Source of the DNA: a virus
DNA length: 64,000 bases
IMG/VR virus record: IMGVR_UViG_3300020578_000011
Strand: one strand, 5' to 3'
Part shown: positions 1 through 12,710 of the stretch, in pieces
Layout: every line of letters starts with the position of its first letter
Numbering within the stretch: the stretch's first letter is position 1
The notes under the pieces: model-generated
The model's database searches: none
Told to the model about the DNA's origin: nothing
The model's input: the letters and a program-made list of their open reading frames with translations, nothing else
Position numbers and translations under genes: made by a program

Positions 1-1746
1 GTAGGCCCTCAAGGTCCTCAAGGTCCTCAAGGCCTTCAAGGCCCTCAAGGTACCCAAGGTGCCCAGGGTGCCAAGGGCGACCAAGGAGAAGTAGGTCCTC
101 AAGGTCCTCAAGGTCCTCAAGGTACTAAGGGAGATCAGGGCGACACAGGTCCTCAAGGTGCTCAAGGCGACACAGGCCCTCAAGGCCCTCAAGGTACCCA
201 GGGTGCCCAGGGCGATAAGGGCGACCAAGGAGAAGTAGGTCCTCAAGGTCCTCAAGGTCCTCAAGGTCCTCAAGGTCCTCAAGGTCCTCAAGGTCCTCAA
301 GGTCCTCAAGGCGCTCAAGGTGCCCAGGGTGCCAAGGGCGACCAAGGAGAAGTAGGTCCTCAAGGTCCTCAAGGTCCTCAAGGTACCCAGGGTGCCACTG
401 GTGATGCTGGCCCGCAAGGTCCGCAAGGTGTTACTGGTGCGCGAGCATACACTGTTACAGATGCGGGTGGAGTATTTGTAATTGATGGCACTAATAATCC
501 AGTCTTAAATTTGCTTCTGGGTTTCACTTATACTTTTAATATCACAGCTACGAATCATCCCTTCTATATTCAAACAAGCAGTGGATCTTTTAATTCAGGA
601 AATTTATATGACACCGGCGTAACAGGTAACGGCACACAGAACGGAACTCTTACCTTTGCAGTTCCGTATAATGCTCCTTCCACGCTCTATTATACTTGCG
701 GCATTCATAGTGGAATGGGGAATACAATTAATATAACCAGTGTGGGTCCTCAAGGCGACACAGGTCCTTCTGGGTTGGGCGGAGAAGAATTAGGAAGTCC
801 GGTTGGGTTTTTTAAAGCAAGTGACACATCGATATCTATAGATGAATCTTCAAGAATTTTTACAATAACACCAAATTTTTCATCATATGTATTTTATTCA
901 GCTGGTAAAAAGTTTGAAAAAACAACATCACTTTCAATATCATGGGCAAATAATCACGGTATTCACTTTTTTTATTTTGATGATAATGGAATTCTTTCTA
1001 CAACTGAAACGTTTGTAGAAGAATTAATAACAAAATATACTTTTATATCAATATTATATTGGGATTCTACGGCTCAAAAAGCAATATATTTTGGAGATGA
1101 AAGACATGGGATAAATATGGGAACAAGTACTCATATGTATCTCCACACGACACGAGGTGCTCAGTTTGATAAAGGTTTAAAACTTGTAAACTTTGTAGTA
1201 GATGGAGATGGTTCGCTAAGTTCGCATGCTCAATTCTCAGCTCAATCTGGAGTTATTTGGGATGAAGATATAAAAATAAATATTCCAGCACAATCTGTTT
1301 TTCCAGTTTTTTATAGATCTGGTTTGGTCTGGAAATCAAAAAATCCAGATTCTTTTCCATTGATATATTCAGGTCAAGAAGGATATTCTGGATTAACAAT
1401 TGCTTACAACATGCAGAGCGAGGGATCCTGGTCTCTTCAGCCGGTTGATTCAAACAAATTTGCACTGGTTCATGTATTTGCAACAAACAACATACAGTAT
1501 CCATTTGTTGCAATTTTAGGGATAAGTCAATACGCAAACAAAACCGCTGCAAGACAAGGTATTAAAATAGAAACTCAACAATTGGGTGGATTGCCTTTTT
1601 CTGAATTTGCGCCTGTTGGATCTATTATATTTGAAACTAGAAATGGTTTTACTAATATACCAAAGGCAGCTATAGTCTCAACAGATCTTGGCATGAATTA
1701 TCAAGATGAAAGAGGCGAGTCTTTTAGACCAGGTACTTTAGATTAA
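1..1746 (+). CDS. Collagen-like virion fibre protein with a cupredoxin-like domain (5' end outside window)
   Basis: Frame 1 is open from base 1 ([10 protein letters not shown]..., G-X-Y repeats to ~435) and continuous with ORF 511..1746. Contains HPFYIQ...[12 protein letters not shown]. Confidence 0.85.
238..309 (+). repeat. Tandem 9-mer GGTCCTCAA x8 (GPQ collagen repeat)
   Basis: Eight perfect copies read directly; degenerate copies span 1-430. Confidence 0.95.
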
Positions 1747-1772
1747 AAGACCCATCCATAGGTCTTGTTTTA
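1747..1772. terminator. Putative bidirectional terminator between convergent genes
   Basis: AAGACC-N8-GGTCTT stem flanked by A-rich and T-rich tracts. Confidence 0.5.
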
Positions 1773-2291
1773 TTAACCAAGAAGAGCTTTAAGTTCTTCT
1801 GGCAAAAGTGTTACATTAACTTGAGTTTTAGGTTTCTTCTTTTGTCCTAATTCTTGTTGACGTGTTTCAATTGCCTCGTCTACAGATGCAATTGATTGAG
1901 AATCAGCGTTGCGCTCAACAAGGGCCTTACGAAGTAATTTTAGTTCTTTTAGTTGAGCATCACTTGCATTTTGTCGCGAACCTGGACTCTTAGCTTGATA
2001 CGCAGCGCCGGCGTTTAATGCTTTGTCTTTATTGTGCCAATTACTAACCAGTCCGCTTACATATTTACGAAGCTCTGACTTGTCAGACAGCTTTTTGCGA
2101 TTTGATTCTGTATCTGAAAAAACAACTTGACCTTTTTGAAACATAGAAGTTACAACTTCTAAAATCTGAGCTCGATATTCTTTAGTCATAACAGAATGAA
2201 TATCTGTTTGATTTGCGACAAACTCAATTCCAGCTTCTTGCAAAACTTGAATTGTTGCATTAAAAACGGCCTCACGTTGAGAAATAGTCAT
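1773..2291 (-). CDS. Unknown early protein, paralogue A (AT-rich copy)
   Basis: Shares YVxGxVxNW..K..LN.G..Y..K.PG.RQ..D.QLKELKLL.KAL.ERNA with 8486..8977 and 9732..10226; AAGGAG RBS. Confidence 0.9.
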   Translation of the reverse strand: MTISQREAVFNATIQVLQEAGIEFVANQTDIHSVMTKEYRAQILEVVTSMFQKGQVVFSDTESNRKKLSDKSELRKYVSGLVSNWHNKDKALNAGAAYQAKSPGSRQNASDAQLKELKLLRKALVERNADSQSIASVDEAIETRQQELGQKKKPKTQVNVTLLPEELKALLG

Positions 2292-2345
2292 AACCTGACT
2301 CCTTATAACAAGTATTGAAAAGAGAAACCACTCCTCTTTTCAAAT

Positions 2346-2750
2346 TCAATTAGAATCGGATATTGTTAGTGAATTGGCATTTGTTGTAAAGTCTGAAAAA
2401 GACATTGTACTTCTACCTAGCCAAGCTAAACATTCGAGCGTTTTTTCATATATTACATTTTTAGGGTTTTTATTTTTAAGCAAACCTGGACTTACGGCAA
2501 TTCCAATTTTTTCCACATTGGGTTCTGCTGTGTAGATTGCAGTCCAACAAATCCAACCATAATGATTCTCGTTTGGATCTAATAACTTAGCAACATAGGG
2601 TTTTGGCATCTGAGTTGCACAATTTGTTTTTTCGCAAAGCAATGCAAATTCCTTAAACCCGTCATTCAACTCATCTTGTAATCTGTCTTCTTCGGTTTCG
2701 TGTCCGCAGCTAGATATTAAAAACAAAGCAAACAATAAACTTTTTTTCAT
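2346..2750 (-). CDS. Predicted lipoprotein
   Basis: MKKSLLFALFLISS-C signal II/lipobox. Confidence 0.75.
   Translation of the reverse strand: MKKSLLFALFLISSCGHETEEDRLQDELNDGFKEFALLCEKTNCATQMPKPYVAKLLDPNENHYGWICWTAIYTAEPNVEKIGIAVSPGLLKNKNPKNVIYEKTLECLAWLGRSTMSFSDFTTNANSLTISDSN
2353..2360 (-). promoter_or_regulatory. TCCGATTC early promoter-like motif upstream of paralogue A
   Basis: Copy of the recurrent motif; followed by a TTGAAAAGAG/CTCTTTTCAA hairpin and the RBS. Confidence 0.7.
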
Positions 2751-2759
2751 ACAACACCC

Positions 2760-2924
2760 TCAATGAAGAATCTCCGGAATCGACTCTGTCATACTTTCAT
2801 TTGCAATGATTACATAATCAATGTATTCATCTATCATTGTTACAAGCATCTCATCTGGAGTTGTTACTATTTTTGTTTTATCTTTTACATTGTTTAAAAG
2901 AGCAATGAGTTGTTCAACAGTCAT
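2760..2924 (-). CDS. Small hypothetical protein (54 aa, MTVEQLIALL...)
   Basis: Hand-translated; AGGGG RBS and TCCGATTC motif 21 nt upstream. Confidence 0.7.
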   Translation of the reverse strand: MTVEQLIALLNNVKDKTKIVTTPDEMLVTMIDEYIDYVIIANESMTESIPEILH

Positions 2925-2945
2925 GTATTTCCCCTGATTTTAATA

Positions 2946-2953
2946 GAATCGGA
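2946..2953 (-). promoter_or_regulatory. TCCGATTC early promoter-like motif
   Basis: 21 nt upstream of the ATG at 2924. Confidence 0.7.
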
Positions 2954-2955
2954 AA

Positions 2956-3222
2956 TCAATGATAAACTCTGCCACAGGTAGCTTTTTTAACAATTAGTGG
3001 ATTATGACCTGCTTTTTCTAATTCTTTAGCCAGTTTTTTAACAGCCTCGCATTTGTTTTTTCCGTGCGCAGCAAAATCATCATTATCTATTTTTAACAGA
3101 CAAAGATGAGGATCCACTACAGTAACGCACAGCTCTGGTAGTTTTGGTTCTTGTTTTGGTTCTTGTTTTGGAATTGTACTGCATGAACTCAATACAAATG
3201 ATAACAATAGTATTTTTTTCAT
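2956..3222 (-). CDS. Predicted small lipoprotein
   Basis: MKKILLLSFVLSS-C lipobox; PKQE repeat; four further Cys. Confidence 0.75.
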   Translation of the reverse strand: MKKILLLSFVLSSCSTIPKQEPKQEPKLPELCVTVVDPHLCLLKIDNDDFAAHGKNKCEAVKKLAKELEKAGHNPLIVKKATCGRVYH

Positions 3223-3305
3223 TTGACACCTTCAAAATATCCACTTATAACTAATATTAAAAAACTAATCATAATAAATACAACTATATAATCAATGTAA
3301 ATCAT
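3219..3305 (-). CDS. 28-aa single-TM peptide
   Basis: Hand-translated MIYIDYIVVFIMISFLILVISGYFEGVK; ATGA overlap with the next gene. Confidence 0.5.
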   Translation of the reverse strand: MIYIDYIVVFIMISFLILVISGYFEGVK

Positions 3306-3605
3306 ATCTACGAAAATCCCCTGTTGATAATATTTTTAAACCATGGTTGGTGTTTTATGTTTTTGATATTTTTATTAAAAACATAAACAATATGACCATA
3401 AAATGAAATTTTATGACTGGGGCAATACCTAAATATAACGTAATATACCTTTTTTAGTTATTTTATATTAATTATACAAAAGTTCATCGAGTACGGGGGT
3501 GTGTTAATCATCCTTCAGTATTTGATTCAAGTCGTAAACATCCACATCCATTCCGTGCTTGATGATTTTTGTGTCATAATCGAAATGCTGCTTTTTATAA
3601 AAATA

Positions 3606-3740
3606 TTAGAATTCATCTTTAAGTTCTTTACTAATATCATTTAATGTTTTTTTAGGTTTTATAAAAAAGTTAATTATTAAATCAGTAATAGTTAAAAACA
3701 ACACGACTGAAATTGTAATTATTAGTAAATTTAATAACAT
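3606..3740 (-). CDS. 44-aa membrane peptide, similar to 9572..9670
   Basis: Hand-translated MLLNLLIITISVVLFLTITDLIINFFIKPKK... Confidence 0.55.
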   Translation of the reverse strand: MLLNLLIITISVVLFLTITDLIINFFIKPKKTLNDISKELKDEF

Positions 3741-3955
3741 ATTTCACTACTTTCAATAAACTTATTAAAAATCTCGGGATATCTGCCTACATAACCATTG
3801 TCTTCAAAGAAATAATAAAGAGCCTCACCAGGACGAAGACCGTCTTCAAAACTATCACGCCAGTGATAATCTTCAAAACTATTGGCATCAAGTCCCACTG
3901 CCTCAACGCAGAGACGATTAACTTCTTTCATCCAGATTTTGAAATTCATCTTCAT
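3731..3955 (-). CDS. Hypothetical protein
   Basis: GGGAG RBS; co-oriented in the early cluster. Confidence 0.7.
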   Translation of the reverse strand: MKMNFKIWMKEVNRLCVEAVGLDANSFEDYHWRDSFEDGLRPGEALYYFFEDNGYVGRYPEIFNKFIESSEICY

Positions 3956-4061
3956 TAGCTTCTCCCAAAAGATTTACTTAATCATCACTCTCGGCTTTAG
4001 CTTCACCAAAATCGCGTTGTTCTTGGGCTTGATTGGTAACCGCGCTTCCGGTATCGAGTTT

Positions 4062-4247
4062 TTAAGAATTTCTTTTTTGATTCACTTCTTGCAGCTGCGC
4101 AAGAAGACCATTGATTCTTTGAATGCTTTGCTTAATTTTCTCATGTCTTTCTTCAAGAGTGATTTCTCGTTTCTCGTTTTGAGGTTGCTTTTGCTGCACT
4201 TGTTGTTTGTTTCGAAAGCTGTTGATATCGATGACGTTGTCATTCAT
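4062..4247 (-). CDS. Small coiled-coil hypothetical protein
   Basis: AAGGAG RBS; MNDNVIDINSFR start. Confidence 0.7.
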   Translation of the reverse strand: MNDNVIDINSFRNKQQVQQKQPQNEKREITLEERHEKIKQSIQRINGLLAQLQEVNQKRNS

Positions 4248-4258
4248 AACGATCTCCT

Positions 4259-4594
4259 TTAGGGTTTGAGAGCATCGAACAAAACCTTAGCATACGGAGA
4301 CATTTCTTCTTTTTCATATGAAGCCTCATAGGCTTTGTAAAACTCTTTATCTAAAGCTTCTTTCTCGTCTTCATCTTCATCGTGATAAGTTCCGTCTTGA
4401 TGTTCAAAGATGCGGAAATCTCCTATTTCATAATCAAGCCATTCATTAAATCCTTGATTATATGCAACTTTATCTAATTCTTTTAAGGCATATGAGGTAG
4501 AGAAAGAATAAGTTGCCACCTTTACTTGCTCGGGATACACTTCATCAAGAAATTCGTCATACATCTTTTCAAGATCTTGCATATCTAGTTCCAT
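4259..4594 (-). CDS. Highly acidic hypothetical protein
   Basis: GAGGAGG RBS; D/E- and aromatic-rich; own TCCGATTC motif upstream. Confidence 0.8.
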   Translation of the reverse strand: MELDMQDLEKMYDEFLDEVYPEQVKVATYSFSTSYALKELDKVAYNQGFNEWLDYEIGDFRIFEHQDGTYHDEDEDEKEALDKEFYKAYEASYEKEEMSPYAKVLFDALKP

Positions 4595-4620
4595 GTTGTC
4601 CTCCTCTTTGTAATAAATAA

Positions 4621-4628
4621 GAATCGGA
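4621..4628 (-). promoter_or_regulatory. TCCGATTC early promoter-like motif
   Basis: Intergenic, 26 nt upstream of the ATG at 4594. Confidence 0.7.
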
Positions 4629-4638
4629 TTTAACCATT

Positions 4639-4884
4639 TTAGTCTTCAATAAAACCAATATATACATCTATTTGATATCCGTATGCCCAGCATTGATTAT
4701 CTAGAGTAAAGATAGCATCTTTTTTATCAACAATAGAAATAGTATCAACAGGTTGACGTTGACCATGTCTCAAACCTAACCCTATGTTTTTTTCAATAGA
4801 TACTATTTTTGCCTTTTCTGGCGGCAAGCTTCCCCAACAACCGCTCCACAGTACGTCATCTCCAATGCTTAAAAAAGCTGTCAT
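4639..4884 (-). CDS. Hypothetical protein
   Basis: GAGG RBS; ORF track. Confidence 0.7.
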   Translation of the reverse strand: MTAFLSIGDDVLWSGCWGSLPPEKAKIVSIEKNIGLGLRHGQRQPVDTISIVDKKDAIFTLDNQCWAYGYQIDVYIGFIED

Positions 4885-5006
4885 AACAACCTCTTATTTG
4901 TCATACGACAATCTTTACAAATCGACATCAATAATGTCACAATCCGAATCTGTAGTTTTTCTAAAGGTCGCATAGTCCATTTAAGAATCCCTTATTGCTG
5001 ATTTGT

Positions 5007-5174
5007 TTACTCAGTGCGAGTTCTTTTGGTCAAGGCATATTTCTTTTTCATCCTACATATTCCTGTCCAAGACATATCGTTCTGAATACATAACTTATAA
5101 AGAACATAGTGTAAGTCGTTTAAAGCTTTAAATTTTTTCTCTATCTTTAAATCGCATACTCGTATGTCTCTCAT
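5007..5174 (-). CDS. Hypothetical protein
   Basis: ORF track 5007..5216; probable ATG start at 5174. Confidence 0.45.
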   Translation of the reverse strand: MRDIRVCDLKIEKKFKALNDLHYVLYKLCIQNDMSWTGICRMKKKYALTKRTRTE

Positions 5175-5230
5175 GCAATTCTCGCTCTGTGTAGCAGTGT
5201 CAGCGGTCATGACCACTTAATATTAGTGAT

Positions 5231-5452
5231 TTACTTCTTAAGTAAAGAATATTTTATTTTAAGAAACACTAATAAGATACTAAACCTTGTTATGCTAATG
5301 AAAGAAGTCTCTTTTAGAGATGGGTTCCAAGCTAATAGATTGTCTATCTGCCGTTGTTGGTGGTGTGTTTTTTGCAAATCTACCCCAGGCATTTTTTCCT
5401 GCAAGTCCGCGATTCGAAGATTTCTTCTTCTTCTCAAATCGTCGTGCATCAT
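5231..5452 (-). CDS. Hypothetical protein
   Basis: Abuts the stop of the upstream gene. Confidence 0.55.
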   Translation of the reverse strand: MMHDDLRRRRNLRIADLQEKMPGVDLQKTHHQQRQIDNLLAWNPSLKETSFISITRFSILLVFLKIKYSLLKK

Positions 5453-5454
5453 TG

Positions 5455-5952
5455 CTATACAATCCTGTAAGTATCAAATTGACTAAAATATGGATAAACA
5501 AGCTCATATCCAAGTTGATTAACTATATCTTCGACAACTGAGACTAGCATATAATAACCATGGCATTGATAGCCCGTTTTTTGATCTATAAACGCTATCT
5601 CAATGGTATGTGGAAATACTTCATTCATTGCACTTGTTCCACTTGACCAAGGGCCTTTAATGTTGCAGGTCGAACCGTCCGTCATTGTTAGATTAAACGT
5701 GTGGCCATAGAAACCACTTGAATCATTAAGTCGTTTGTAATAAAACTGAACAAAGCCAATTTCATTCTTTCCCCAGTATAGATCACCAACATGCTTGCCG
5801 TTGTCGCGATCATGGTCTTCTATCTTTTGAAATAAGATATCACTCGGCTCTCTTCCTCTAATATAAAGACGAAGTTTGTTAGTTGAGACCGTATCGATCC
5901 AGAATTCATAGCCATTAGAATATAATCTGTTTGGTTTTGCGACTTGTTCCAT
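5455..5952 (-). CDS. Hypothetical protein
   Basis: GAGGTGA RBS; 165 aa. Confidence 0.8.
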   Translation of the reverse strand: MEQVAKPNRLYSNGYEFWIDTVSTNKLRLYIRGREPSDILFQKIEDHDRDNGKHVGDLYWGKNEIGFVQFYYKRLNDSSGFYGHTFNLTMTDGSTCNIKGPWSSGTSAMNEVFPHTIEIAFIDQKTGYQCHGYYMLVSVVEDIVNQLGYELVYPYFSQFDTYRIV

Positions 5953-6136
5953 GGCTCACCTCGTGAATGGATTTTAGGATTTCATCGAAATAATGATTCT
6001 TATTTGTTACTTTTGCTATTCGCAAAATACCTAATAGCATTTTAAATCTCTGTTTACTTCTTAAACCTTCAACGGTTACAACTAGTTTGTCAAATTCATC
6101 GTACTTATTTTCAGAAACAGATTTGTTAGATTTCAT
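5915..6136 (-). CDS. Hypothetical protein
   Basis: Abuts the upstream stop. Confidence 0.6.
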   Translation of the reverse strand: MKSNKSVSENKYDEFDKLVVTVEGLRSKQRFKMLLGILRIAKVTNKNHYFDEILKSIHEVSHGTSRKTKQIIF

Positions 6137-6574
6137 TTATAAAACTTTTTCTTCAATAGTTTCAAACTCAATTAATTGATTTAGATAATTGAGAATATCT
6201 TGCTCATCCACACCTGCTATTATTGCGAACTTTATACAATTAGAAATATCAGACACATGTCCGCATTTCATTTCAGTAATCAAAAAAAACCTATCTGTTC
6301 CCATGTGTGCATCTTGAGCACAACTTGAAATTGCCCCAGAGGCAAAATAAAACGCATGATTGAGAATATTTGCATCTGCAATTTTACGTGCTAAATTACT
6401 TGCTATCTCACATTCTTTTTTTGAAGAAAGACCATTGATATAATTATCTATAACTTTAATAACATTAGTTAAATCATCATCAGGGCATATTTTACTTGCC
6501 AAAATGGCAGAAAATAAATTAAGTCTATTGATTTGTTTATTAGTAAGCTTGCGGCCACAATAGTAAATATTCAT
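6137..6574 (-). CDS. Hypothetical protein
   Basis: GGGAG RBS; 145 aa. Confidence 0.75.
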   Translation of the reverse strand: MNIYYCGRKLTNKQINRLNLFSAILASKICPDDDLTNVIKVIDNYINGLSSKKECEIASNLARKIADANILNHAFYFASGAISSCAQDAHMGTDRFFLITEMKCGHVSDISNCIKFAIIAGVDEQDILNYLNQLIEFETIEEKVL

Positions 6575-6595
6575 AATAAATCTCCCTAAGATTTA

Positions 6596-7000
6596 CTATA
6601 GATTCGAATTTAATTGCTTTTCAACAGCGCAACGAAACAAGTAATTCATAGCTAACATTTTTATTTGCTCTCGTTCTACTACTCTCGCCCCGTCGAGCGA
6701 CCAGCTAAATGTAGAATAGGGTTCTGGATAGAATCGGATCTGACAATAGCCCGCACTTCTATCTGAGATAAGTTTACCATTGGTTTGTTTAAGAAGACGT
6801 TTTAACTTAAATGAATGCTTATTCAAATCATGTCGAAGTTTGTTGTGCGCTTCGAATTCACGTTTTAATTTGTTAATTATTTCAATAGGTTTTCTATTAT
6901 CAACTGCATACATAAGTTTATAACGCAATGAGCTACGTTTGCGAGCCCATTCGTTTCTAGCATTAACTATGAAGCAGATCTCTTCATATACAGAGTTCAT
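6596..7000 (-). CDS. Basic hypothetical protein
   Basis: GAGG RBS; TCCGAATC motif at 7028-7035 upstream. Confidence 0.75.
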   Translation of the reverse strand: MNSVYEEICFIVNARNEWARKRSSLRYKLMYAVDNRKPIEIINKLKREFEAHNKLRHDLNKHSFKLKRLLKQTNGKLISDRSAGYCQIRFYPEPYSTFSWSLDGARVVEREQIKMLAMNYLFRCAVEKQLNSNL

Positions 7001-7221
7001 AAAACCTCTGACCTACACGTTGAAATAGATTCGGATAATACTTTATTTTATAAAATCCTCAACATCTACAAAGGATAGGTTTACTTTACTGTTTTTTATA
7101 ACTACTAATCTCATCAACACCCAAGTTAGGTGTATTCTAGTTGTAGTTCTATTGTTCCACTCTATTGGTCTAAAGTAACTCATTTAATCATGTATTCGAA
7201 GTTGGGATTGATCAACGTGGT

Positions 7222-7443
7222 TCATAAATCACATACCTCTTCTAAAGTCATCTCTTCTGTCGTGACTAATTCTAGTTCGTCTATTGCATAGAAGTGAGAA
7301 TAGCTTTTTGCATGGGCATCTGCTGCCTGGGCGTCAGTTGCATTTATCAGTCTTTGCATATCTTTTTCCGCCTGAGCGCGAACGGTATAGACCTTATCCA
7401 CGGCGATTTCGACGTCATTAAATACTATGATATAGACTTTCAT
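7222..7443 (-). CDS. Hypothetical protein
   Basis: Likely start MKVYII at 7443 after AAGGA. Confidence 0.7.
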   Translation of the reverse strand: MKVYIIVFNDVEIAVDKVYTVRAQAEKDMQRLINATDAQAADAHAKSYSHFYAIDELELVTTEEMTLEEVCDL

Positions 7444-7519
7444 CTGTCTTCCTTGAGACGACCTGAGTCCGCGCCGACACTGTTCACACAATGAAGAAAA
7501 AAACTATGAAGCATGTTGT

Positions 7520-7723
7520 TCATTCAGAGCTCCAAAAGAACTTGGAGATGCTCTGCAGCATCCCCATCTTCAAGGCTTCGGCTTTCTCTATCGCTACCAA
7601 CAAAGCTCTGCTGGCTGCTTTGAGGGAGTCTATGTCCTTGTAATCAGAGGAACTTAGTAAGTTTTCAGCTTCCCATATCAAGGTTCTAATAGTTTCTATT
7701 TCGTCTGAATTGTTAGGTTTCAC
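7520..7723 (-). CDS. Hypothetical protein
   Basis: AAGGAG RBS, GTG start. Confidence 0.65.
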   Translation of the reverse strand: MKPNNSDEIETIRTLIWEAENLLSSSDYKDIDSLKAASRALLVAIEKAEALKMGMLQSISKFFWSSE

Positions 7724-7866
7724 ACCTTATCTCCTTTAAACTCACCACAAGCGCATCCTCAAAAAAAAACGCGTTTGCAACTCAAAATATGATTACGAAT
7801 AGACGGTACTCTCCAAAAAACAGTTACACACCAAACCAAAGAACCACAATTGAAATCAACGGAGTA

Positions 7867-8112
7867 TTAAACGGGGTTGTCTTCTAGCAAGAACTCAATC
7901 AATCCATTGAGCTGTCTCTCATTAAGACGGCCAATGATTGAAGTCCGATAGTCATCTGCATCATAAGAGCAACCGTAAGTGTATTCGATCACACCCAGTT
8001 CCAAAAGCATCTCTAAGCCCTTCTCGCCAGGGAATCTAGCACTAAACATTCTATCAACCATACGAGCAACAGGAGTAAGCTCACGATCACCAGAGACCAT
8101 AAGTACTGTCAT
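7867..8112 (-). CDS. Hypothetical protein
   Basis: GGAGGT RBS before the ATG at 8112. Confidence 0.7.
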   Translation of the reverse strand: MTVLMVSGDRELTPVARMVDRMFSARFPGEKGLEMLLELGVIEYTYGCSYDADDYRTSIIGRLNERQLNGLIEFLLEDNPV

Positions 8113-8124
8113 ACCCACCTCCAA

Positions 8125-8310
8125 TCATCTACGTAGTTTAATAATTGGATGACCTTCGTCTGTTACGTCAGATGTAGCGTCTGACAACTCAAGATCTACA
8201 CAGCCAGCACCAAAGTATTCATCTTGCTCTAGATCAAGAATGGTTACATGATTGTTTAACTGATTTTCACTTAAAAGACTAAGGGCTTCTAGCAGTTCTT
8301 TATAGGTCAT
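8125..8310 (-). CDS. Small acidic hypothetical protein (MTYKELLEAL...)
   Basis: GGAGGT RBS; TCCGATTC at 8338-8345. Confidence 0.75.
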   Translation of the reverse strand: MTYKELLEALSLLSENQLNNHVTILDLEQDEYFGAGCVDLELSDATSDVTDEGHPIIKLRR

Positions 8311-8485
8311 AGTGACACCTCCATCTATGGATGTAGAGAATCGGATGGAACGCTTCGCTGTCCCAGATTGCCCCAGTGAAAATGGGATAAAATGAGTTAA
8401 AAGTGGGTGGGTGGTGGCCGCGCACTCTCTCACTCAACTTTCCACTTAAATTTTATTAGTGCACTTCCATGTGCACCTATCTCAC

Positions 8486-8977
8486 TCAGAGCAAGTCTCT
8501 TAGGTGCTCTGGGATTTTACTAAGATCCACTTCGATTTTGCTTTGTGGCTTGATCTCGCTGAGACGCTGCGCAATTGCTTCATCGACCTTGGCAACTGCT
8601 TCAGGCTGGGCATTGCGCTCGATGAGAGCCTTGCGCAGTAGCTTTAGCTCTTTCAGCTGTGGATCACTTGAACCCTGGCGAACACCCGGGTTTTTGGGTG
8701 CATACTTTGTTCCACCATTGAGCTCGGTCGACTTGCGGAACCAGTTGTTCACCATACCTACTACGTAGGTACGGACCTTAGATGGTGAGTCGTACTTGAT
8801 TCGAGCACCTGGACTAAAATCAGTCCCATGCTCGAGGATCGACTGGGTCACTAGATCGACCACCTGCTTAGTCTGATCCTTGGTGATGTACTCCAAGACT
8901 GGAGTACCGGGTTTGAACGACTCACCGAGAACTTCTTGAGTAGCTGCAACAACTGACGCTGACTGTGACATAGTCAT
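8486..8977 (-). CDS. Unknown early protein, paralogue B
   Basis: Aligns end-to-end with 9732..10226; GGAGGT RBS; CCCGATCC motif at 9022-9029. Confidence 0.9.
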   Translation of the reverse strand: MTMSQSASVVAATQEVLGESFKPGTPVLEYITKDQTKQVVDLVTQSILEHGTDFSPGARIKYDSPSKVRTYVVGMVNNWFRKSTELNGGTKYAPKNPGVRQGSSDPQLKELKLLRKALIERNAQPEAVAKVDEAIAQRLSEIKPQSKIEVDLSKIPEHLRDLL

Positions 8978-9075
8978 AAAACACCTCCAATAGTTGAGCT
9001 CAGGCCCAACATATATATAAAGGATCGGGAGAGACTGGGACCGTCCCAGCGTTCGCAGTGCTTCGGGTGCCGCTA

Positions 9076-9471
9076 CTACCGTTGGCCCGCGAACAATATA
9101 TTATAGAGTCGGTTGACGGCGTAGCGGTGTCGGAGCTGTTGGCTCCGACTGGGGGAGCTAGCGAGGACTAAGTCCTCGCTTTCCCCTGGTGTTCTCACTA
9201 TGCTCTCGGCTCGCCAGCGGACTGGAGAGCCGTCGTGTGGCTTGTGCCAGTTGGCCGTGTATTCCACGGTCTCGAACTCGTCTTCGAGTTCGACCAAGTT
9301 CGAGAGCATTTGGAGATGCTCTGCGAGTTCTGGATCGTGGTTGCCAACTAGTTCGTCGCTATCTTGGTACCTGAAGGCGCCGCCATCGATGGCGTAGTAC
9401 TCGGTGTACTCGCTGTCTGTGATGTCAGTGATGAATGCATTTACCGCGCCTTCGAGTCTTACATTGTACAT
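9076..9471 (-). CDS. Acidic hypothetical protein
   Basis: GAGGTGA RBS; 131 aa. Confidence 0.75.
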   Translation of the reverse strand: MYNVRLEGAVNAFITDITDSEYTEYYAIDGGAFRYQDSDELVGNHDPELAEHLQMLSNLVELEDEFETVEYTANWHKPHDGSPVRWRAESIVRTPGESEDLVLASSPSRSQQLRHRYAVNRLYNILFAGQR

Positions 9472-9606
9472 AAGTCACCTCATTGTTAATATATAAGCTA
9501 TATTTAATTATATAGCTTATTATTAACAATATATTATAGAGTCGATTGACGGCGTAGCAGTGTCGGAGCATTCAGCGCCGACTGATTCTCTCTAGAACGA
9601 AGTCCT
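9092..9606. repeat. Imperfect ~85-bp direct repeat (9092-9176 and 9525-9606) carrying a hairpin and promoter-like motif
   Basis: AACAATATATTATAGAGTCGRTTGACGGCGTAGCRGTGTCGGAGC...CCGACTG...AAGTCCT in both copies. Confidence 0.9.
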
Positions 9607-9670
9607 TTATTACATCGGAGATAGTTAGTAAGATATATCCGAACACGAAGATAATAAGTAAACTAGTCAT
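9572..9670 (-). CDS. 32-aa membrane peptide
   Basis: GGAGGA RBS; MTSLLIIFVFGYILLTISDVIKDFVLERISRR. Confidence 0.7.
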   Translation of the reverse strand: MTSLLIIFVFGYILLTISDVIKDFVLERISRR

Positions 9671-9693
9671 GATCGTATCCTCCTAGTTTAGGG

Positions 9694-9720
9694 AAAGGTT
9701 GGGCTCAGAAGAGCCCAACC
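9694..9720 (-). terminator. Hairpin downstream of paralogue C (terminator or processing site)
   Basis: GGTTGGGCTC-N4-GAGCCCAACC perfect 10-bp stem followed by only TTT on the minus strand. Confidence 0.6.
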
Positions 9721-9731
9721 GGAACGGAACC

Positions 9732-10226
9732 TCAGACGAGGTCCCGGAGGTGATCTGGGATCAGATCCAGATTCACTTCGACCTTCTTGGCTGCGGGTTG
9801 GATCTCGGAGATTCGCTGGTCGATCGCTTCCTGCACCTTGGCCAGAGCATCTGGTGCTGCGTTCCGCTCGGTCAAGGCCTTCATCAGGAGCTTGAGCTCC
9901 TTGAGCTGGGGGTCGGTCGAACCTTGGCGAGATCCTGGGTTCTTGATCTCGTACTTGGTTCCACCGTTCAACTCCTTGCCTTTGCGGAACCAGTTGTTGA
10001 CCATACCAACCACGTAGCTTCTCAGCTTCTTGGGATCGGCGAACTTCTCACGAGCCTGAGCGGAGAGATCGGTCTCGAACTCTTGGATCGACTGAGTCAC
10101 AAGGTCAACAACCGAGGCAGTCTCGTCCTTCGAGATGTACTCGAGGATCGGAGCACCTGGACGGAAGGATTCACCGAGAACTTGCTTGGTATAGAACACT
10201 ACTGATTCGGATTGTGACATAACCAT
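9732..10226 (-). CDS. Unknown early protein, paralogue C (GC-rich copy, first gene of the leftward unit)
   Basis: AGGAGGT RBS; homologous to 1773..2291 and 8486..8977. Confidence 0.9.
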   Translation of the reverse strand: MVMSQSESVVFYTKQVLGESFRPGAPILEYISKDETASVVDLVTQSIQEFETDLSAQAREKFADPKKLRSYVVGMVNNWFRKGKELNGGTKYEIKNPGSRQGSTDPQLKELKLLMKALTERNAAPDALAKVQEAIDQRISEIQPAAKKVEVNLDLIPDHLRDLV

Positions 10227-10257
10227 ATAACACCTCCTGGTTGAACAAACAGATAGA

Positions 10258-10431
10258 GTATCGGATCAAACGCCGTACACTATCGATAACAGAATCGTAA
10301 GACAAAGATAGAATAGTATCGGAATCTCCACATTCACCTCCAGTTTCGGGTGGGTGCTTTCCATAATACTTTATAGAATCGGATACCCGGTAGCCTTTCC
10401 TTTTTAGGGGACCTCTTATTATAGTATCGGT
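10258..10431 (-). promoter_or_regulatory. Four tandem (T/A)CCGATWC promoter-like motifs
   Basis: Copies at 10258-10265, 10316-10323, 10376-10383 and 10424-10431, all facing paralogue C. Confidence 0.75.
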
Positions 10432-11060
10432 ACCGCGGCGCAAATAATCCCTAGCTGGGGCATTGCAAATACAAGGGCCCGGGCCCTCAATACAGAAACA
10501 GGCCCGGTAGCTTGTAGAAAAAAGTCAGGTACCAGTACTTGATTTGCACACAATAGTATAGTGTGATTTATAGAGCGTGCATTTTAAAAACACATTGTAT
10601 ATTCATACAATTAATCAGTTTTGCTTATTCTATACTTCCTGTAACCTACAACTGCCACCACATAGGGTGCATATAGTCGCCACAACTGCCACCATATAGG
10701 GTGCACATTCTCCTATTCCCTTGTCAAAGATCCACTCCTATTATACCCGCCCAGGGCCTGCGCGGACGCCCACTACATCGTTGACATCATTGAAATAAGT
10801 GAGAAAGTTATAGTTAAATTACGTCGTTTACTTCGCTGATATAAAGCGCGATATCGCGCTAGGATCTTCAGCGAATAGACTCGACGAGGATAGGTGGTGC
10901 TTTAGTTGTAGGTTAGGCGCGGCATCATAGGTGCAGTGGATTACAGGCGCTGGCATAAGGCATGATTGATAAAAAATATGGGTTGATTTAAAATTAGTGA
11001 AAGTTAAGTGTGTGCACTTAAAAAAGCATAGTGTTTTCATGGGGTTCTAAAAAAACTTAA
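10432..11060. other. Non-coding palindrome/repeat-rich junction (candidate genome end or packaging site)
   Basis: Palindromes 10474-10487 and 10845-10860; 24-bp direct repeat at 10648/10682; 12-bp inverted repeat at 10642/10904. Confidence 0.45.
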
Positions 11061-11064
11061 AAAA

Positions 11065-11856
11065 TCAAGAAAGAAACAATCTTCGTTCAGCTTCTCTACG
11101 ACGAGTTAAACCAGCCATAACTTGACCACGGGACTTGTTGTATTTTAAAAACTCTTCTGCGGCAAGAACAAAGTTACGTTGATTAACGAGCTTAAGAAGA
11201 GTCGATTGCTTTAGATTACCAGCACCGACGTTGTAGGTAAACGAAACTAGAGCGGCAAATTGATTGTCATTGACTTCTACTTTTAGAAGCTTGCTTACTT
11301 GATCGCAAAAGCTTTGAAGATGATGGACGAGTGCTTGCTCAGCTTGCTCCTGTGTCCATACTGTCTTTGGACCAATTGGTGAGTGTTTTCCGTCTACCAG
11401 CGGAGAGAATTGATCAAGACCAGTTGCACCGTAGCCAATTGTCCAAGGATCACCTGGAAGAGATTTCCAACCTTCTTTTCTGGCGTTTTGTGTTTTTAAC
11501 AACTCTTTACCTAGAGGAGAGGCAGGATCGGCATATGCCTTTAACTTACAACCTTCGAAAGATTTTATTAGGTCAACACCATCTTTGTTTATCTTTTTCA
11601 TATTTTCTTCTCCAAATTTTTGTTCTATAGCAAAATCTAAAATTTTTTGCTTAGCTGCTTGTTTGTAGATTTCTGCAACTTCATATTCTGATCTTGCACG
11701 AAGAGCTCCGGTGGCTTCCCAACAACTCATCCAACCAGTTCCATCTTGCCTTTCTGTTAATTTAGCAAGAGGACAAATTTTACATGGATTATTTCTGAGA
11801 TCTTCACAATCACCAGTCGAAGCTATATGCTCTAATATCTTAGAGACGCGATTCAT
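11065..11856 (-). CDS. GH24 lysozyme (endolysin) with a Cys-rich N-terminal extension; probable internal start at 11601
   Basis: LIKSFEG..KAY.D...WTIGYG...NQFAALVSFTYNVG...GLTRRREAERRLF. Confidence 0.9.
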   Translation of the reverse strand: MNRVSKILEHIASTGDCEDLRNNPCKICPLAKLTERQDGTGWMSCWEATGALRARSEYEVAEIYKQAAKQKILDFAIEQKFGEENMKKINKDGVDLIKSFEGCKLKAYADPASPLGKELLKTQNARKEGWKSLPGDPWTIGYGATGLDQFSPLVDGKHSPIGPKTVWTQEQAEQALVHHLQSFCDQVSKLLKVEVNDNQFAALVSFTYNVGAGNLKQSTLLKLVNQRNFVLAAEEFLKYNKSRGQVMAGLTRRREAERRLFLS

Positions 11857-11903
11857 CGCAATACTCCATGTATAATAGGTTATACCTAGGAGAGGATTTT
11901 ATC

Positions 11904-12710
11904 ATGTCACAAAAGATGACCAAACCTTCAGCCACTTTTCCAAATAGCTCTACTTCTTCAAGTAGTCAGTTTCCAATAAACTTACCCGATCCAAGTATGT
12001 TTGGACAAAACTTTGATCAACTAATTCAAAGACGCGGAATCAGATTTGTTCATCATAGGGCTTTGCCATGTCCTAACATGAACTCTCTTAATGACAATTC
12101 ACATTCTCCAATTTGCCCACACTGTGATGGATCTGGTATCTTTTACTATGAGCCAAGAGAGATAGTTGGCGTATTTATTTCTAATTCTGTAGAGAAAAAC
12201 TTTGAATATCAAGGAGTGTGGGAAGTTGGAACTGCCACTATTACTTTTCCAGTTGAATACGACAATGGAGATCAGGCTGAATTTTCTATGTATGATAAAT
12301 TAGTAATAACTGATTATACAGTGAGAATGTGGGAAAAGAAAGAATACGAACCCAGACCAGGCGACACTCAACAGCTTAGGTATCCAATTGAAAAAGTAGA
12401 ATATATGATAACAGCAACCGATACACTTGTTAAAGAATATAAACAAGGTGAAGATTTTACTGTAGAAAATGGATTAATAAAATGGATTTCTGGAAAAACT
12501 CCACCTTACGATACTCTTAACGAAATCGGTGATACTTTTGCTGTTAGTTATTTTGCAAATCCAGTTTATATTGTTCTTCAACCATTAAGAGAACTGCGTG
12601 TATCTCAACAAATGGTTGACGGTGTTAAGACAACCAAAAGACTACCTCAACATATAGTAGTTAAAAGAGACTTTTTTGTTAACAAACCAGAAAAAATATC
12701 TGGAATGTGA
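11904..12710 (+). CDS. Head-tail joining/neck protein
   Basis: AGGAG RBS; CP...CPHCDGSG motif; first gene of the structural operon. Confidence 0.6.
   Translation: MSQKMTKPSATFPNSSTSSSSQFPINLPDPSMFGQNFDQLIQRRGIRFVHHRALPCPNMNSLNDNSHSPICPHCDGSGIFYYEPREIVGVFISNSVEKNFEYQGVWEVGTATITFPVEYDNGDQAEFSMYDKLVITDYTVRMWEKKEYEPRPGDTQQLRYPIEKVEYMITATDTLVKEYKQGEDFTVENGLIKWISGKTPPYDTLNEIGDTFAVSYFANPVYIVLQPLRELRVSQQMVDGVKTTKRLPQHIVVKRDFFVNKPEKISGM

Follow-up and report, generated by a model that had tools for sequence, protein, structure and literature searches.

Three copies of one gene in an early unit

The window, that is the whole stretch of 64,000 nucleotides that was analysed (IMG/VR virus record IMGVR_UViG_3300020578_000011), carries a leftward early unit in which one protein is encoded three times. 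An earlier note, made from the sequence, had proposed this triplication, and it is borne out by three open reading frames (ORFs):

9732..10226, minus strand: copy c1, 164 aa, first long gene of the leftward early unit
8486..8977, minus strand: copy c2, 163 aa
1773..2291, minus strand: copy c3, 172 aa

The three ORFs are paralogous and align end to end. Copies c1 and c2 are 70% identical, while c3 is 43% identical to c1 as aligned; tblastn gives it about 42% to both c1 and c2. The alignment has 59 invariant columns, and it contains the two motifs that had been quoted: the almost invariant core YVxGxVxNW...LNxGxxY..KxPGxRQ...D.QLKELKLL.KAL.ERNA and the C-terminal peptide V(N/D)..(I/L)P..L..L. 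Spread over 8 kb, the copies stand at the head, the middle and the end of the early genes. Their described order needs some correction: c3 is indeed the last gene of the unit, converging on a collagen-like fibre gene, but c1, the first long gene, is immediately preceded by a conserved mini-ORF of 18-21 codons, and c2 is the fourth gene only when a 32-codon ORF (9572-9670) is counted. Copy c3 is 74% identical to positions 18882-19397 of L004, a related phage, and is part of an old lineage, the 'distal copy', that related phages share.

Signals and codon use around the copies

The intergenic regions of the early unit are punctuated by short repeated elements:

10254..10430, minus strand: array of CCGA(T)nCTATA-type boxes 5' of c1 (10420-10430, 10372-10382, 10314-10323, 10254-10264)
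9697..9720, minus strand: hairpin after the c1 stop codon, 10 bp, GC, then CUUUCCC
9525..9584, minus strand: putative regulatory cassette, copy 1; short hairpin, 14-mer GACACTGCTACGCC (9551-9564), then CGACTCTATAAT
9092..9151, minus strand: putative regulatory cassette, copy 2; hairpin, GACACCGCTACGCC (9118-9131), then CCGACTCTATAAT (9102-9112)
9018..9028, minus strand: CCGATCCTTTA box, 41 nt 5' of the c2 ATG
8458..8477, minus strand: hairpin after the c2 stop codon, 7 bp with GUGCAC arms, z -4.1
2351..2360, minus strand: TCCGATTCTA box, 60 nt 5' of the c3 ATG
1747..1766, unstranded: weak hairpin resembling a terminator, common to c3 and the collagen-like fibre gene that converges with it, z -1.4

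A CCGAT motif had been noticed upstream of each copy. Boxes do precede c1, c2 and c3, but they are not specific to the paralogues, since the same box precedes many early genes. The pattern CCGAYNCTNTA occurs 6 times where 0.42 is expected, always on the minus strand between 8334 and 10430. Allowing at most one mismatch, TCCGATTCTA is found 14 times against 3.7 expected, 8 of these within the early unit, mostly just 5' of ORF starts (one is intragenic). The blocks of the array upstream of c1 are kept in the relatives L004 and L009, and its box at 10314-10323 falls within the mini-ORF, here of 21 codons. The TCCGATTCTA box and the start codon of c3 are separated by a 13-bp hairpin (2315-2343). 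The claim of a hairpin downstream of each copy holds for c1 (-23.5 kcal/mol, z -3.1) and c2, and for c3 with a weak hairpin that the fibre gene shares. The two cassettes form a 60-nt repeat, 88% identical, the first lying 5' of ORF 9076-9471 and the second 141 nt 5' of the c2 start codon. In all, this phage has three 14-mers, two of them perfect and one degenerate. Among relatives there are many cases of family genes flanked by near-identical cassettes of 40-60 nt.

Base composition follows the order of the copies, with GC of 0.55, 0.50 and 0.37 for c1, c2 and c3, and GC3 of 0.68, 0.53 and 0.21, the last value being the genome baseline. This gradient had been read as a property of the paralogues. 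The gradient stands, but it belongs to the region: the unrelated ORF 9076-9471 has a GC3 of 0.67, after which GC3 drops gene by gene to the baseline of about 0.2 across the whole early unit. Beyond composition, the effective number of codons (Nc) lies 8-13 under the GC3 expectation in c1 (45.8 vs 54.1), in ORF 9076-9471 and in c2 (49.7 vs 60.4), with ATC, AAG, CTC, GGT and AAC as preferred codons. The family copies of related phages have a higher GC3 than their own genomes. Tandem boxes, low Nc and the strong Shine-Dalgarno sequences of the early unit are, as read from the DNA, signs of high early expression. The products differ in charge, with pI values of 5.9 (c1), 9.1 (c2) and 9.2 (c3), so that the c1 protein is not strongly basic overall.

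A family of uncultured aquatic myoviruses

The family had not been recognised by the earlier note, and searches agree, with no match in Pfam, PHROGs, PADLOC or PDB sequences, nor in a sequence search of 50,697 isolate phage genomes. When 41 members were compared with Pfam, none reached threshold, the best stray hit being PKMT_2nd (winged helix; E 0.022, one member). Pfam and PADLOC searches gave no similarity to Tad2, DUF2829 or DUF7235 either. The family, of proteins of about 165 residues, is large (831 clusters at 50% identity), and in its atlas clusters the viral share is 92-100%; judged by these comparisons, it is virus-only and undescribed. Its phages are uncultured myoviruses, mostly from aquatic metagenomes and distant to SPO1 and Mx1: the closest relative of their sheath is that of Myxococcus phage Mx1 (31.6%), while SPO1 gp6.4 and CP-51 give the nearest matches to a virion protein. 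Within 4 kb of the copies, the only early-region protein common across the clade is the family itself, which marks the early region of this large clade.

In relatives, the copies are neither single nor randomly placed, the two observations that would have spoken against the earlier note. There are 2-3 same-strand copies per 20 kb, adjoining the endolysin gene at the junction between endolysin and structural genes, a conserved position. At least two copies are present in 22/26 long non-redundant loci, and five genomes of 153-176 kb, 91-100% complete, have 4-6 family matches each. The tree shows many phage-specific duplicate pairs, lineage-specific duplications having recurred independently, while the distal-copy lineage was kept across several phage groups. 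The ratio dN/dS, proposed earlier as a check, is 0.035-0.17, with purifying selection on all copies tested. In the window, dS between c1 and c2 is 1.7, hence both copies have long been retained. A selected gene dosage fits the recurrent lineage-specific duplications, the purifying selection and the codon bias of the head copies beyond the GC3 expectation.

A 16-mer that accompanies the family

The family co-occurs with a sharply bounded, non-palindromic 16-mer, cTGACACTGCTACGCc, and this co-occurrence is new. All 166 occurrences of the form GACACYGCTACGC are on the family strand, with none on the opposite one, and they come from 59/65 non-redundant family loci. When IMG/VR was scanned with the motif alone, 31 of the 32 stretches having at least three motifs encoded the family, and the contigs of multi-motif stretches without it carry it elsewhere. 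In the five genomes that are 91-100% complete, the motif appears only 3-7 times each, never off the family strand and never outside the region that holds the family matches. It is conserved across phages whose proteins share only 35-45% identity.

Its placement is peculiar. The motif follows the stop codon within 300 nt in 55/120 copies, mostly at 33-60 nt. It lies at most 300 nt upstream of 25/46 later copies, compared with 7/60 first copies; 53 of 60 loci lack it over the 3 kb that precede the first copy. Between 16-mer and CCGA/TATA box there are 4 to about 40 nt, the distances peaking at 6, 15-16, 25-29 and 37 nt. At a period of 10.5 bp the vector strength reaches 0.44, where the 99.9th percentile of a uniform null is 0.235; this statistic is inflated to an undefined degree because the cassettes are related by descent. 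Such phasing is what would be expected of a DNA site that has to lie on one face of the helix with respect to a core promoter.

Protein architecture

The predicted protein starts with a small four-helix N-terminal domain, continues with a rigidly conserved basic/aromatic segment and a helical hairpin, and ends in a short peptide (..IP..L..L). The conserved segment combines the end of helix 4 with the loop NW..K...LNGG..Y..KNPGSR.G..D; predictions place no strands in loop 83-105. Nine basic residues (K61, R81, K82, K91, K95, R100, K109, R138, K146) and three acidic ones (D83, D105, E141) are conserved, with Y71, W79, Y92, N78, N87 and N96 interspersed among charged residues. Variation is found mostly in the first ~70 residues, where the N-terminal helices lie, and in the second hairpin helix, the core being nearly identical across copies.

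The N-domain was modelled with pLDDT 89 and pTM 0.77. The structural comparison that the earlier note had called for gave Foldseek matches all with E above 1, and no significant family. With VIA, Z reached at most 5.0 for the N-domain and 5.9 for the hairpin, all below significance. Weak winged-helix matches of the N-domain were E2F-DP (Z 4.9), MukF (4.7), JetA (4.7), Fkh1 (4.2), DpnI (4.2) and SAMD1 (4.0), standing among unrelated folds, with L11-type nucleic-acid binders also as weak neighbours. Helical models often reach such fold scores by chance. Several assignments were set aside. A curated helix-turn-helix or winged-helix family was rejected at profile level, with no Pfam threshold match in the 41 members. 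Acyl or peptidyl carrier proteins, the top Foldseek rows, match with E 1.1-3, an rmsd of about 9 Å and TM of 0.3-0.4, and among 194 members a Ser/Thr near residue 32 never reaches 60% conservation, although carrier proteins keep a Ser where helix 2 begins. The K-N-P-G-S-R stretch superficially resembles the R-N-P-x-T arm of HU/IHF, and Bac_DNA_binding of Pfam matches no member. A signal sponge, by contrast, may still be concealed: Tad1, Tad2 and Acb2 are absent from the Foldseek and VIA lists, but weak or missing fold matches say little here.

What the protein may do

From these features we infer, tentatively, an abundant early nucleic-acid-binding regulator that would work through the 16-mer cTGACACTGCTACGCc as its target and set off a cascade. 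The first copy would be expressed at once from CCGA/TATA promoters devoid of the 16-mer. Its product would then act on the hairpin-plus-16-mer cassettes that lie behind family genes and ahead of the next promoters, either activating these promoters or permitting read-through of the hairpins. Later copies, often with a cassette upstream, would amplify the signal. The complete picture, a self-contained module in which a new nucleic-acid-binding fold, encoded by the first early gene, reads a clade-wide operator behind its own copies, switches on or antiterminates into delayed-early genes and is amplified by operator-driven paralogues, is possible but doubtful. To be sure, family and motif could both merely mark one clade, and the 16-mer could be read by a factor of the host or by some other protein of the phage. 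The phage of the window holds few 14-mers, the pI of c1 is 5.9, and fold and sequence matches are below significance. Furthermore, with 3-7 sites per genome, a sequence-specific regulator would hardly need 3-6 codon-optimised copies, a dosage better suited to a stoichiometric binder.

Such a binder, acting in host takeover or against host defences, is nearly as likely as a regulator working through the 16-mer. It could bind an abundant host protein or a small anionic ligand (e.g. a nucleotide signal) via the basic/aromatic loop, paralogues with differing N-terminal surfaces would widen its targets, and the 16-mer would be a local promoter element. A gene that comes first among the long ones, after tandem promoter-like boxes, and has a strong Shine-Dalgarno sequence, optimised codons and several copies suits this role, as do independent recurrent duplications, expected if dosage is selected, and an invariant core next to variable first ~70 residues and second hairpin helix. 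The conserved peptide at the C-terminus follows a flexible Lys-rich linker and resembles a docking motif. However, the family matches neither PADLOC, nor Pfam anti-defence families, nor solved sponge or inhibitor structures, and the 16-mer directly after family genes clade-wide is left unexplained. Counter-defence genes are usually patchy and fast-evolving, whereas this family is clade-wide, fixed in position and constrained (dN/dS 0.035-0.17).

Bulk demand would also account for gene dosage and codon optimisation if the protein were a general, non-sequence-specific one, histone-like, DNA-coating or an RNA chaperone, that protects, compacts or organises incoming and replicating phage DNA. We find this unlikely. 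The conserved charge (nine basic residues to three acidic, aromatics interspersed), the basic c2 and c3 (pI 9.1 and 9.2) and the winged-helix and L11-type neighbours speak for it. Yet c1, at pI 5.9, has a net charge near zero, unlike HU, H-NS and histone-like proteins, neither Bac_DNA_binding nor any other nucleoid-protein profile of Pfam matches, and a tightly kept 35-residue loop suggests a specific ligand over generic contacts with the backbone. It is very improbable, finally, that copy number has no adaptive meaning, unequal recombination simply adding and removing copies of a gene caught between repeated promoter/terminator cassettes. The near-identical 40-60 nt flanks, the 88% repeat of 60 nt in the window and the many phage-specific pairs in the tree would allow it, and shuffling mediated by promoter-early stem-loops (PeSL) is documented (PMC2839356, PMC4122927). 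But all tested copies are under purifying selection, with a c1/c2 dS of 1.7, the distal lineage is conserved across several phage groups, at least two copies are present in 22/26 long loci and at least four matches in 5/5 complete genomes. Cassette recombination may account for the origin of copies, not for their persistence.

Comparison with known systems

Early regions of large lytic phages consist mostly of unexplained ORFans. Here is a candidate pair of protein and DNA site, rare and directly testable, for phages with no cultured member. If the link between family and 16-mer is true, this would be a new family of phage transcription control, and a sequence signature by which metagenomes could be searched for the early regions of the clade. 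Should the link not hold, the family would, by its dosage and placement, be a strong candidate for a factor made in abundance for host takeover or counter-defence.

The early protein MotA of T4, together with AsiA, activates middle promoters via a MotA box upstream of the -10 element. The regulator proposed here would similarly be an early gene product reading a phage-specific box ahead of a -10-like element without a normal -35, in a cascade from immediate-early to delayed-early genes, and its predicted layout also has two parts, a small helical N-domain and a second module. By contrast, there is no sequence or fold match to MotA (Pfam, PHROG, PDB sequences, Foldseek, VIA), the spacing of the 16-mer is variable and roughly 10-bp phased where the MotA box is fixed near -30, and the family has 3-6 copies, with no AsiA-like partner identified.

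In T4-type phages, repeated PeSL cassettes of hairpin and promoter punctuate a hypervariable early region (PMC2839356, PMC4122927). The layout found here, hairpin, 16-mer and CCGA/TATA box, 3-7 times per genome and always on the coding strand, is of this type, with promoter and terminator roles putative. As with PeSLs, the cassettes flank small genes of unknown function and supply homology for duplication, loss and exchange. However, they add an invariant 16-mer, they are bound to one gene family rather than to arbitrary cargo, and the phages are not T4-like, their sheath being nearest to Mx1 and their virion protein to SPO1 gp6.4 and CP-51.

Phage lambda offers a third parallel, where N, from the first gene of an early operon, acts at nut, made of a hairpin and a conserved linear box. 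Here too a c1-type gene stands first in the early unit with a hairpin behind it, and a conserved linear element, strictly strand-specific, sits beside a hairpin of variable sequence. Unlike N, to which it has no similarity, the family lacks an arginine-rich motif. Because the hairpin sequence is not conserved, recognition of the boxB type is unlikely, and the phasing between 16-mer and promoter box suggests that DNA, not RNA, would be read.

An early gene family present in three copies

The window belongs to a large myovirus. Beyond the tail sheath and the endolysin it codes for baseplate and tail proteins and for a NUDIX protein. Even its closest cultured relatives are distant: its sheath shares 31.6% identity with that of Myxococcus phage Mx1, and a virion protein (11868-12710) shows 27-29% identity to SPO1 gp6.4 and to CP-51. 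Between the endolysin and a converging collagen-like fibre gene, small ORFs without a Pfam match form a leftward block, the early unit, which houses three paralogous genes designated c1, c2 and c3. Recorded contigs that encode the c2 protein reach 149 kb.

Features in and around the early unit
Ends at 1746: collagen-like fibre gene, converging on the early block
1773-2291, minus strand: c3
8486-8977, minus strand: c2
9076-9471, minus strand: ORF for an acidic protein of 131 aa, unrelated to the family
9572-9670, minus strand: 32-codon ORF with a strong Shine-Dalgarno sequence, predicted to make a small hydrophobic peptide
9732-10226, minus strand: c1
11065-11856: endolysin
15962-18133: tail sheath

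The three proteins can be aligned over their full length, c1 and c2 sharing 70% identity and c3 about 42% with both. The common motifs quoted in the earlier note are correct, and the alignment has 59 invariant columns. The same note placed c1 and c2 as first and fourth genes of the unit, a count that holds only if the 32-codon ORF, which directly follows the c1 hairpin, is taken as the second gene. The last 25 or so codons of ORF 9076-9471 traverse the second promoter cassette (hairpin, 16-mer and CCGA/TATA box, see below), and a spurious ORF (9425-9571) reads through the first one; the peptide LRH(R/C)YAVNRLYNIL, which the two ORFs seem to share, is the product of a repeated DNA cassette, not a protein motif.

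It had also been proposed that each copy has its own promoter and a hairpin downstream. Boxes do stand upstream of the copies, but they are a trait of the whole early unit rather than of the paralogues. The pattern CCGAYNCTNTA occurs 6 times (0.42 expected), always on the minus strand between 8334 and 10430. The form TCCGATTCTA, located 60 nt upstream of c3, is found with at most one mismatch 14 times (3.7 expected), 8 of these in the early unit and mostly just upstream of ORF starts. Scanning for the sigma-70 consensus gave neither a canonical promoter before c1, c2 or c3 nor any enrichment. As for hairpins, those following c1 (z -3.1) and c2 (z -4.1) are strong, whereas the one after c3 is weak and common to the fibre gene.

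The graded codon style attributed to the three copies is present, yet it is regional and not specific to them, since the unrelated ORF 9076-9471 has a GC3 of 0.67 (c1 0.68, c2 0.53, c3 0.21) and GC3 declines gene by gene along the early unit to a genome baseline of about 0.2. Codon bias in c1, ORF 9076-9471 and c2 exceeds what GC would produce: their effective codon numbers fall 8-13 under the GC3 expectation, with ATC, AAG, CTC, GGT and AAC as favoured codons, while c3 and the endolysin, sheath and NUDIX genes lie on the expected curve. The pattern resembles translational selection on the genes that are expressed first, and the proposal that the product is dosage-critical gains support. The copies are GC3-rich against their own loci in almost every phage, the first copy usually being highest, and a composite GC profile of 34 loci peaks on that first copy (0.53 versus 0.42-0.44). 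The head of the early unit as a whole (window 8000-10450 and 34 related loci) exceeds its genome in GC and GC3 in almost all relatives. Taken with the excess codon bias seen in the window, this enrichment suggests an adjustment of immediate-early genes to the tRNA pool of the host, with late genes keeping to the AT-rich style of the phage.

Sequence and structure of the family

The author of the earlier note did not recognise the family, and no characterised family has been matched since. Scanned against Pfam, PHROGs and PADLOC, the three copies and 41 family members returned stray sub-threshold matches only, PDB sequence profiles gave nothing for the whole protein or its N-domain, and 50,697 isolate phage genomes contained no tblastn match to c1 or to two divergent members (P0052, P0057), even at E 1. 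Relatives are nevertheless abundant: among 1.84 billion cluster representatives, a profile search yielded 831 at E ≤1e-3 and 280 at ≤1e-30. The best 150 of the 831 are 131-225 aa long, each matching in one stretch; longer fused forms were searched for and none was found, which is weak evidence. In the ESM Atlas the clusters are 92-100% viral and unnamed, with no usable named cluster. In bacterial assemblies, a back-translated pattern scan placed the family on phage-like MAG contigs only. One of these, LNEN01000305.1 (146,658 bp; loci L191, L192 and L194), from a Cytophagales MAG bin, has at least three copies. Since its length equals that of a family-bearing phage contig in IMG/VR, it gives neither a prophage nor a firm host; the bin has probably taken in a phage genome, at best a weak hint of the host.

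Across 194 members the conserved residues are Q5, V9, Y71, G74, N78, W79, K82, N87, G88, G89, Y92, K95, N96, P97, G98, S99, R100, G102, D105, L114, I135, R138, P157 and L160. Nine conserved residues are basic and three acidic, and aromatics are also conserved. AlphaFold confidently models the whole protein with pLDDT 89 and residues 1-105 with pLDDT 89 and pTM 0.77, as helices 5-20, 33-48, 56-61 and 65-82, a hairpin at 106-142 and a short C-terminal helix; the conserved loop 83-105 is modelled at lower confidence. With either model, Foldseek against PDB gave no row under E 1, and ACP-like rows were rejected, with an rmsd of about 9 Å. Against BFVD it gave a single match, the uncharacterised family member A0A6J5KXM4. 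A wide VIA search reached Z ≤5.9 for the hairpin (CsoR, Mediator, designed bundles) and Z ≤5.0 for the N-domain, under the level common by chance for helical models. Several winged-helix DNA binders are among the weak, non-significant fold matches of the N-domain. Homodimer prediction with two copies scored 0.00, which speaks neither for nor against.

Copy number and position in relatives

Single-copy, randomly placed homologues, which the earlier note named as evidence against its reading, are not what the relatives show, since they keep multiple copies at a fixed position. The family HMM was run on 77 loci from IMG/VR, ENA, JGI and Logan. Of the non-redundant loci, 26 measure 18 kb or more: ten of these have three copies, twelve two and four one. 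All copies (119/119) are on a single strand, and the gaps have a median of 2.3 kb. The family is matched 4-6 times in each of five genomes that are 91-100% complete and 153-176 kb in length. The conserved neighbours are the endolysin (44/78 loci), the homologue of 11868-12710 (45) and the NUDIX gene (30), and no other early-region protein is widely common to the family loci. Closer relatives (L001-L006) share the layout of the window: a pair of copies follows the endolysin and a third lies some 7-9 kb downstream, adjoining the collagen fibre gene in L004 and L005. In the tree c3 belongs to an old distal-copy lineage common to several phage groups, c1 and c2 are sisters, and duplicate sets of their own are found in many other phages. 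Where dS is unsaturated, orthologue pairs have dN/dS of 0.035-0.17; c1 and c2 differ by dN 0.275 and dS 1.70; all copies are therefore old and constrained.

The region upstream of the first copy

An ORF-poor gap of 840 nt lies upstream of c1. Blocks of it (window 10500-10760, minus strand; also L004 7950-8300 and L009) are conserved nearly base for base among phages whose proteins are only 65-70% identical. One block, GC-rich, ends in GGGTATAATAGGA, and about 220 nt downstream of it come a hairpin (CAGGTAC..GTACCTG) and a T-run. This stretch resembles a short non-coding transcription unit that runs from promoter to terminator and varies in its middle part. An Rfam search of window 1-12000, this candidate unit included, gave no match. 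Within the candidate unit, at 10648-10708, two 27-nt repeats (93% identical, period 34 nt) stand in tandem; L004 and L009 lack them. Just upstream of c1, a mini-ORF of 18-21 codons (about 10271-10336, minus strand), conserved in both of these loci, reads x-x-P-I-L-F-Y..., is hydrophobic and has its own Shine-Dalgarno sequence, GGAGGTGA. Because its differences between phages are partly synonymous, the CCGAT box at 10314-10323 may be coding sequence rather than promoter.

A strand-specific 16-mer and its cassettes

Counting k-mers upstream of family copies revealed a sharply bounded, clade-wide 16-mer, cTGACACTGCTACGCc, with 166 occurrences on the family strand and none on the other, in 59 of 65 non-redundant loci. 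Family-bearing phages without it were sought as a test of co-variation: the motif is absent from 7 of 77 loci, mostly truncated next to the gene or carrying a site with one mismatch. Conversely, when IMG/VR was scanned for the motif alone, 31 of 32 stretches with at least three motifs encoded the family. In five complete IMG/VR genomes (G001-G005) it occurs 3-7 times each, confined to the early region and strand of the family.

Sites in the window
9551-9564 and 9118-9131: perfect 14-mer, each in a 60-nt repeat, the repeats being 88% identical
5188-5201: degenerate 14-mer

The 16-mer is usually preceded by a hairpin of variable sequence, and a CCGAnnCTATA-type box follows in 55% of cassettes. 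Spacing to the box peaks at 6, 15-16, 25-29 and 37 nt, a phasing of about 10 bp (vector strength 0.44 at 10.5 bp versus 0.235 for the 99.9th percentile of a uniform null), a statistic that is only suggestive because the cassettes are related by descent. A role as sigma-70 -35 element was rejected, TGACA being at least 22 nt from the TATA box. The 16-mer lies within 300 nt after the stop codon in 55 of 120 copies, mostly at 33-60 nt, and upstream of 25/46 later copies versus 7/60 first copies; in 53 of 60 loci none is found within 3 kb upstream of the first copy.

What the family may do

It is established that the family is undescribed, that its multiple copies, constrained and with the look of highly expressed genes, are kept at a fixed place, and that it co-occurs with an invariant strand-specific 16-mer. 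We prefer, tentatively and knowing that it may well be wrong, to see in the protein a nucleic-acid-binding early regulator. Co-distribution, geometry, phasing and the conserved basic and aromatic residues argue for this, as do the weak winged-helix resemblance and the lack of another conserved early gene nearby. In this reading, promoters lacking the 16-mer would drive the first copy, whose product would act at the cassettes following family genes, and later copies would amplify the effect. To be sure, there is no significant fold match, family and motif may both be mere clade markers, and the motif could be read by a host factor or by some other protein of the phage. Furthermore, the few sites per genome are hard to reconcile with a heavy gene dosage. 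That dosage is better explained by a stoichiometric binder involved in host takeover or counter-defence, possible though somewhat doubtful, which leaves the motif linkage and the strong conservation unexplained. A general architectural nucleic-acid binder is unlikely. Neutral, cassette-driven duplication may account for the origin of the copies, by analogy with PeSLs (PMC2839356, PMC4122927), but not for their persistence, and as an overall explanation it is highly improbable.

The 16-mer could serve as a signature for locating early regions in this phage clade. The comparisons made place the protein in no known family, and its likeness to T4 MotA-type activation, as to lambda N-type control, is one of logic only. 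The closest parallel, again in logic only, would join either of these to PeSL-like cassettes.
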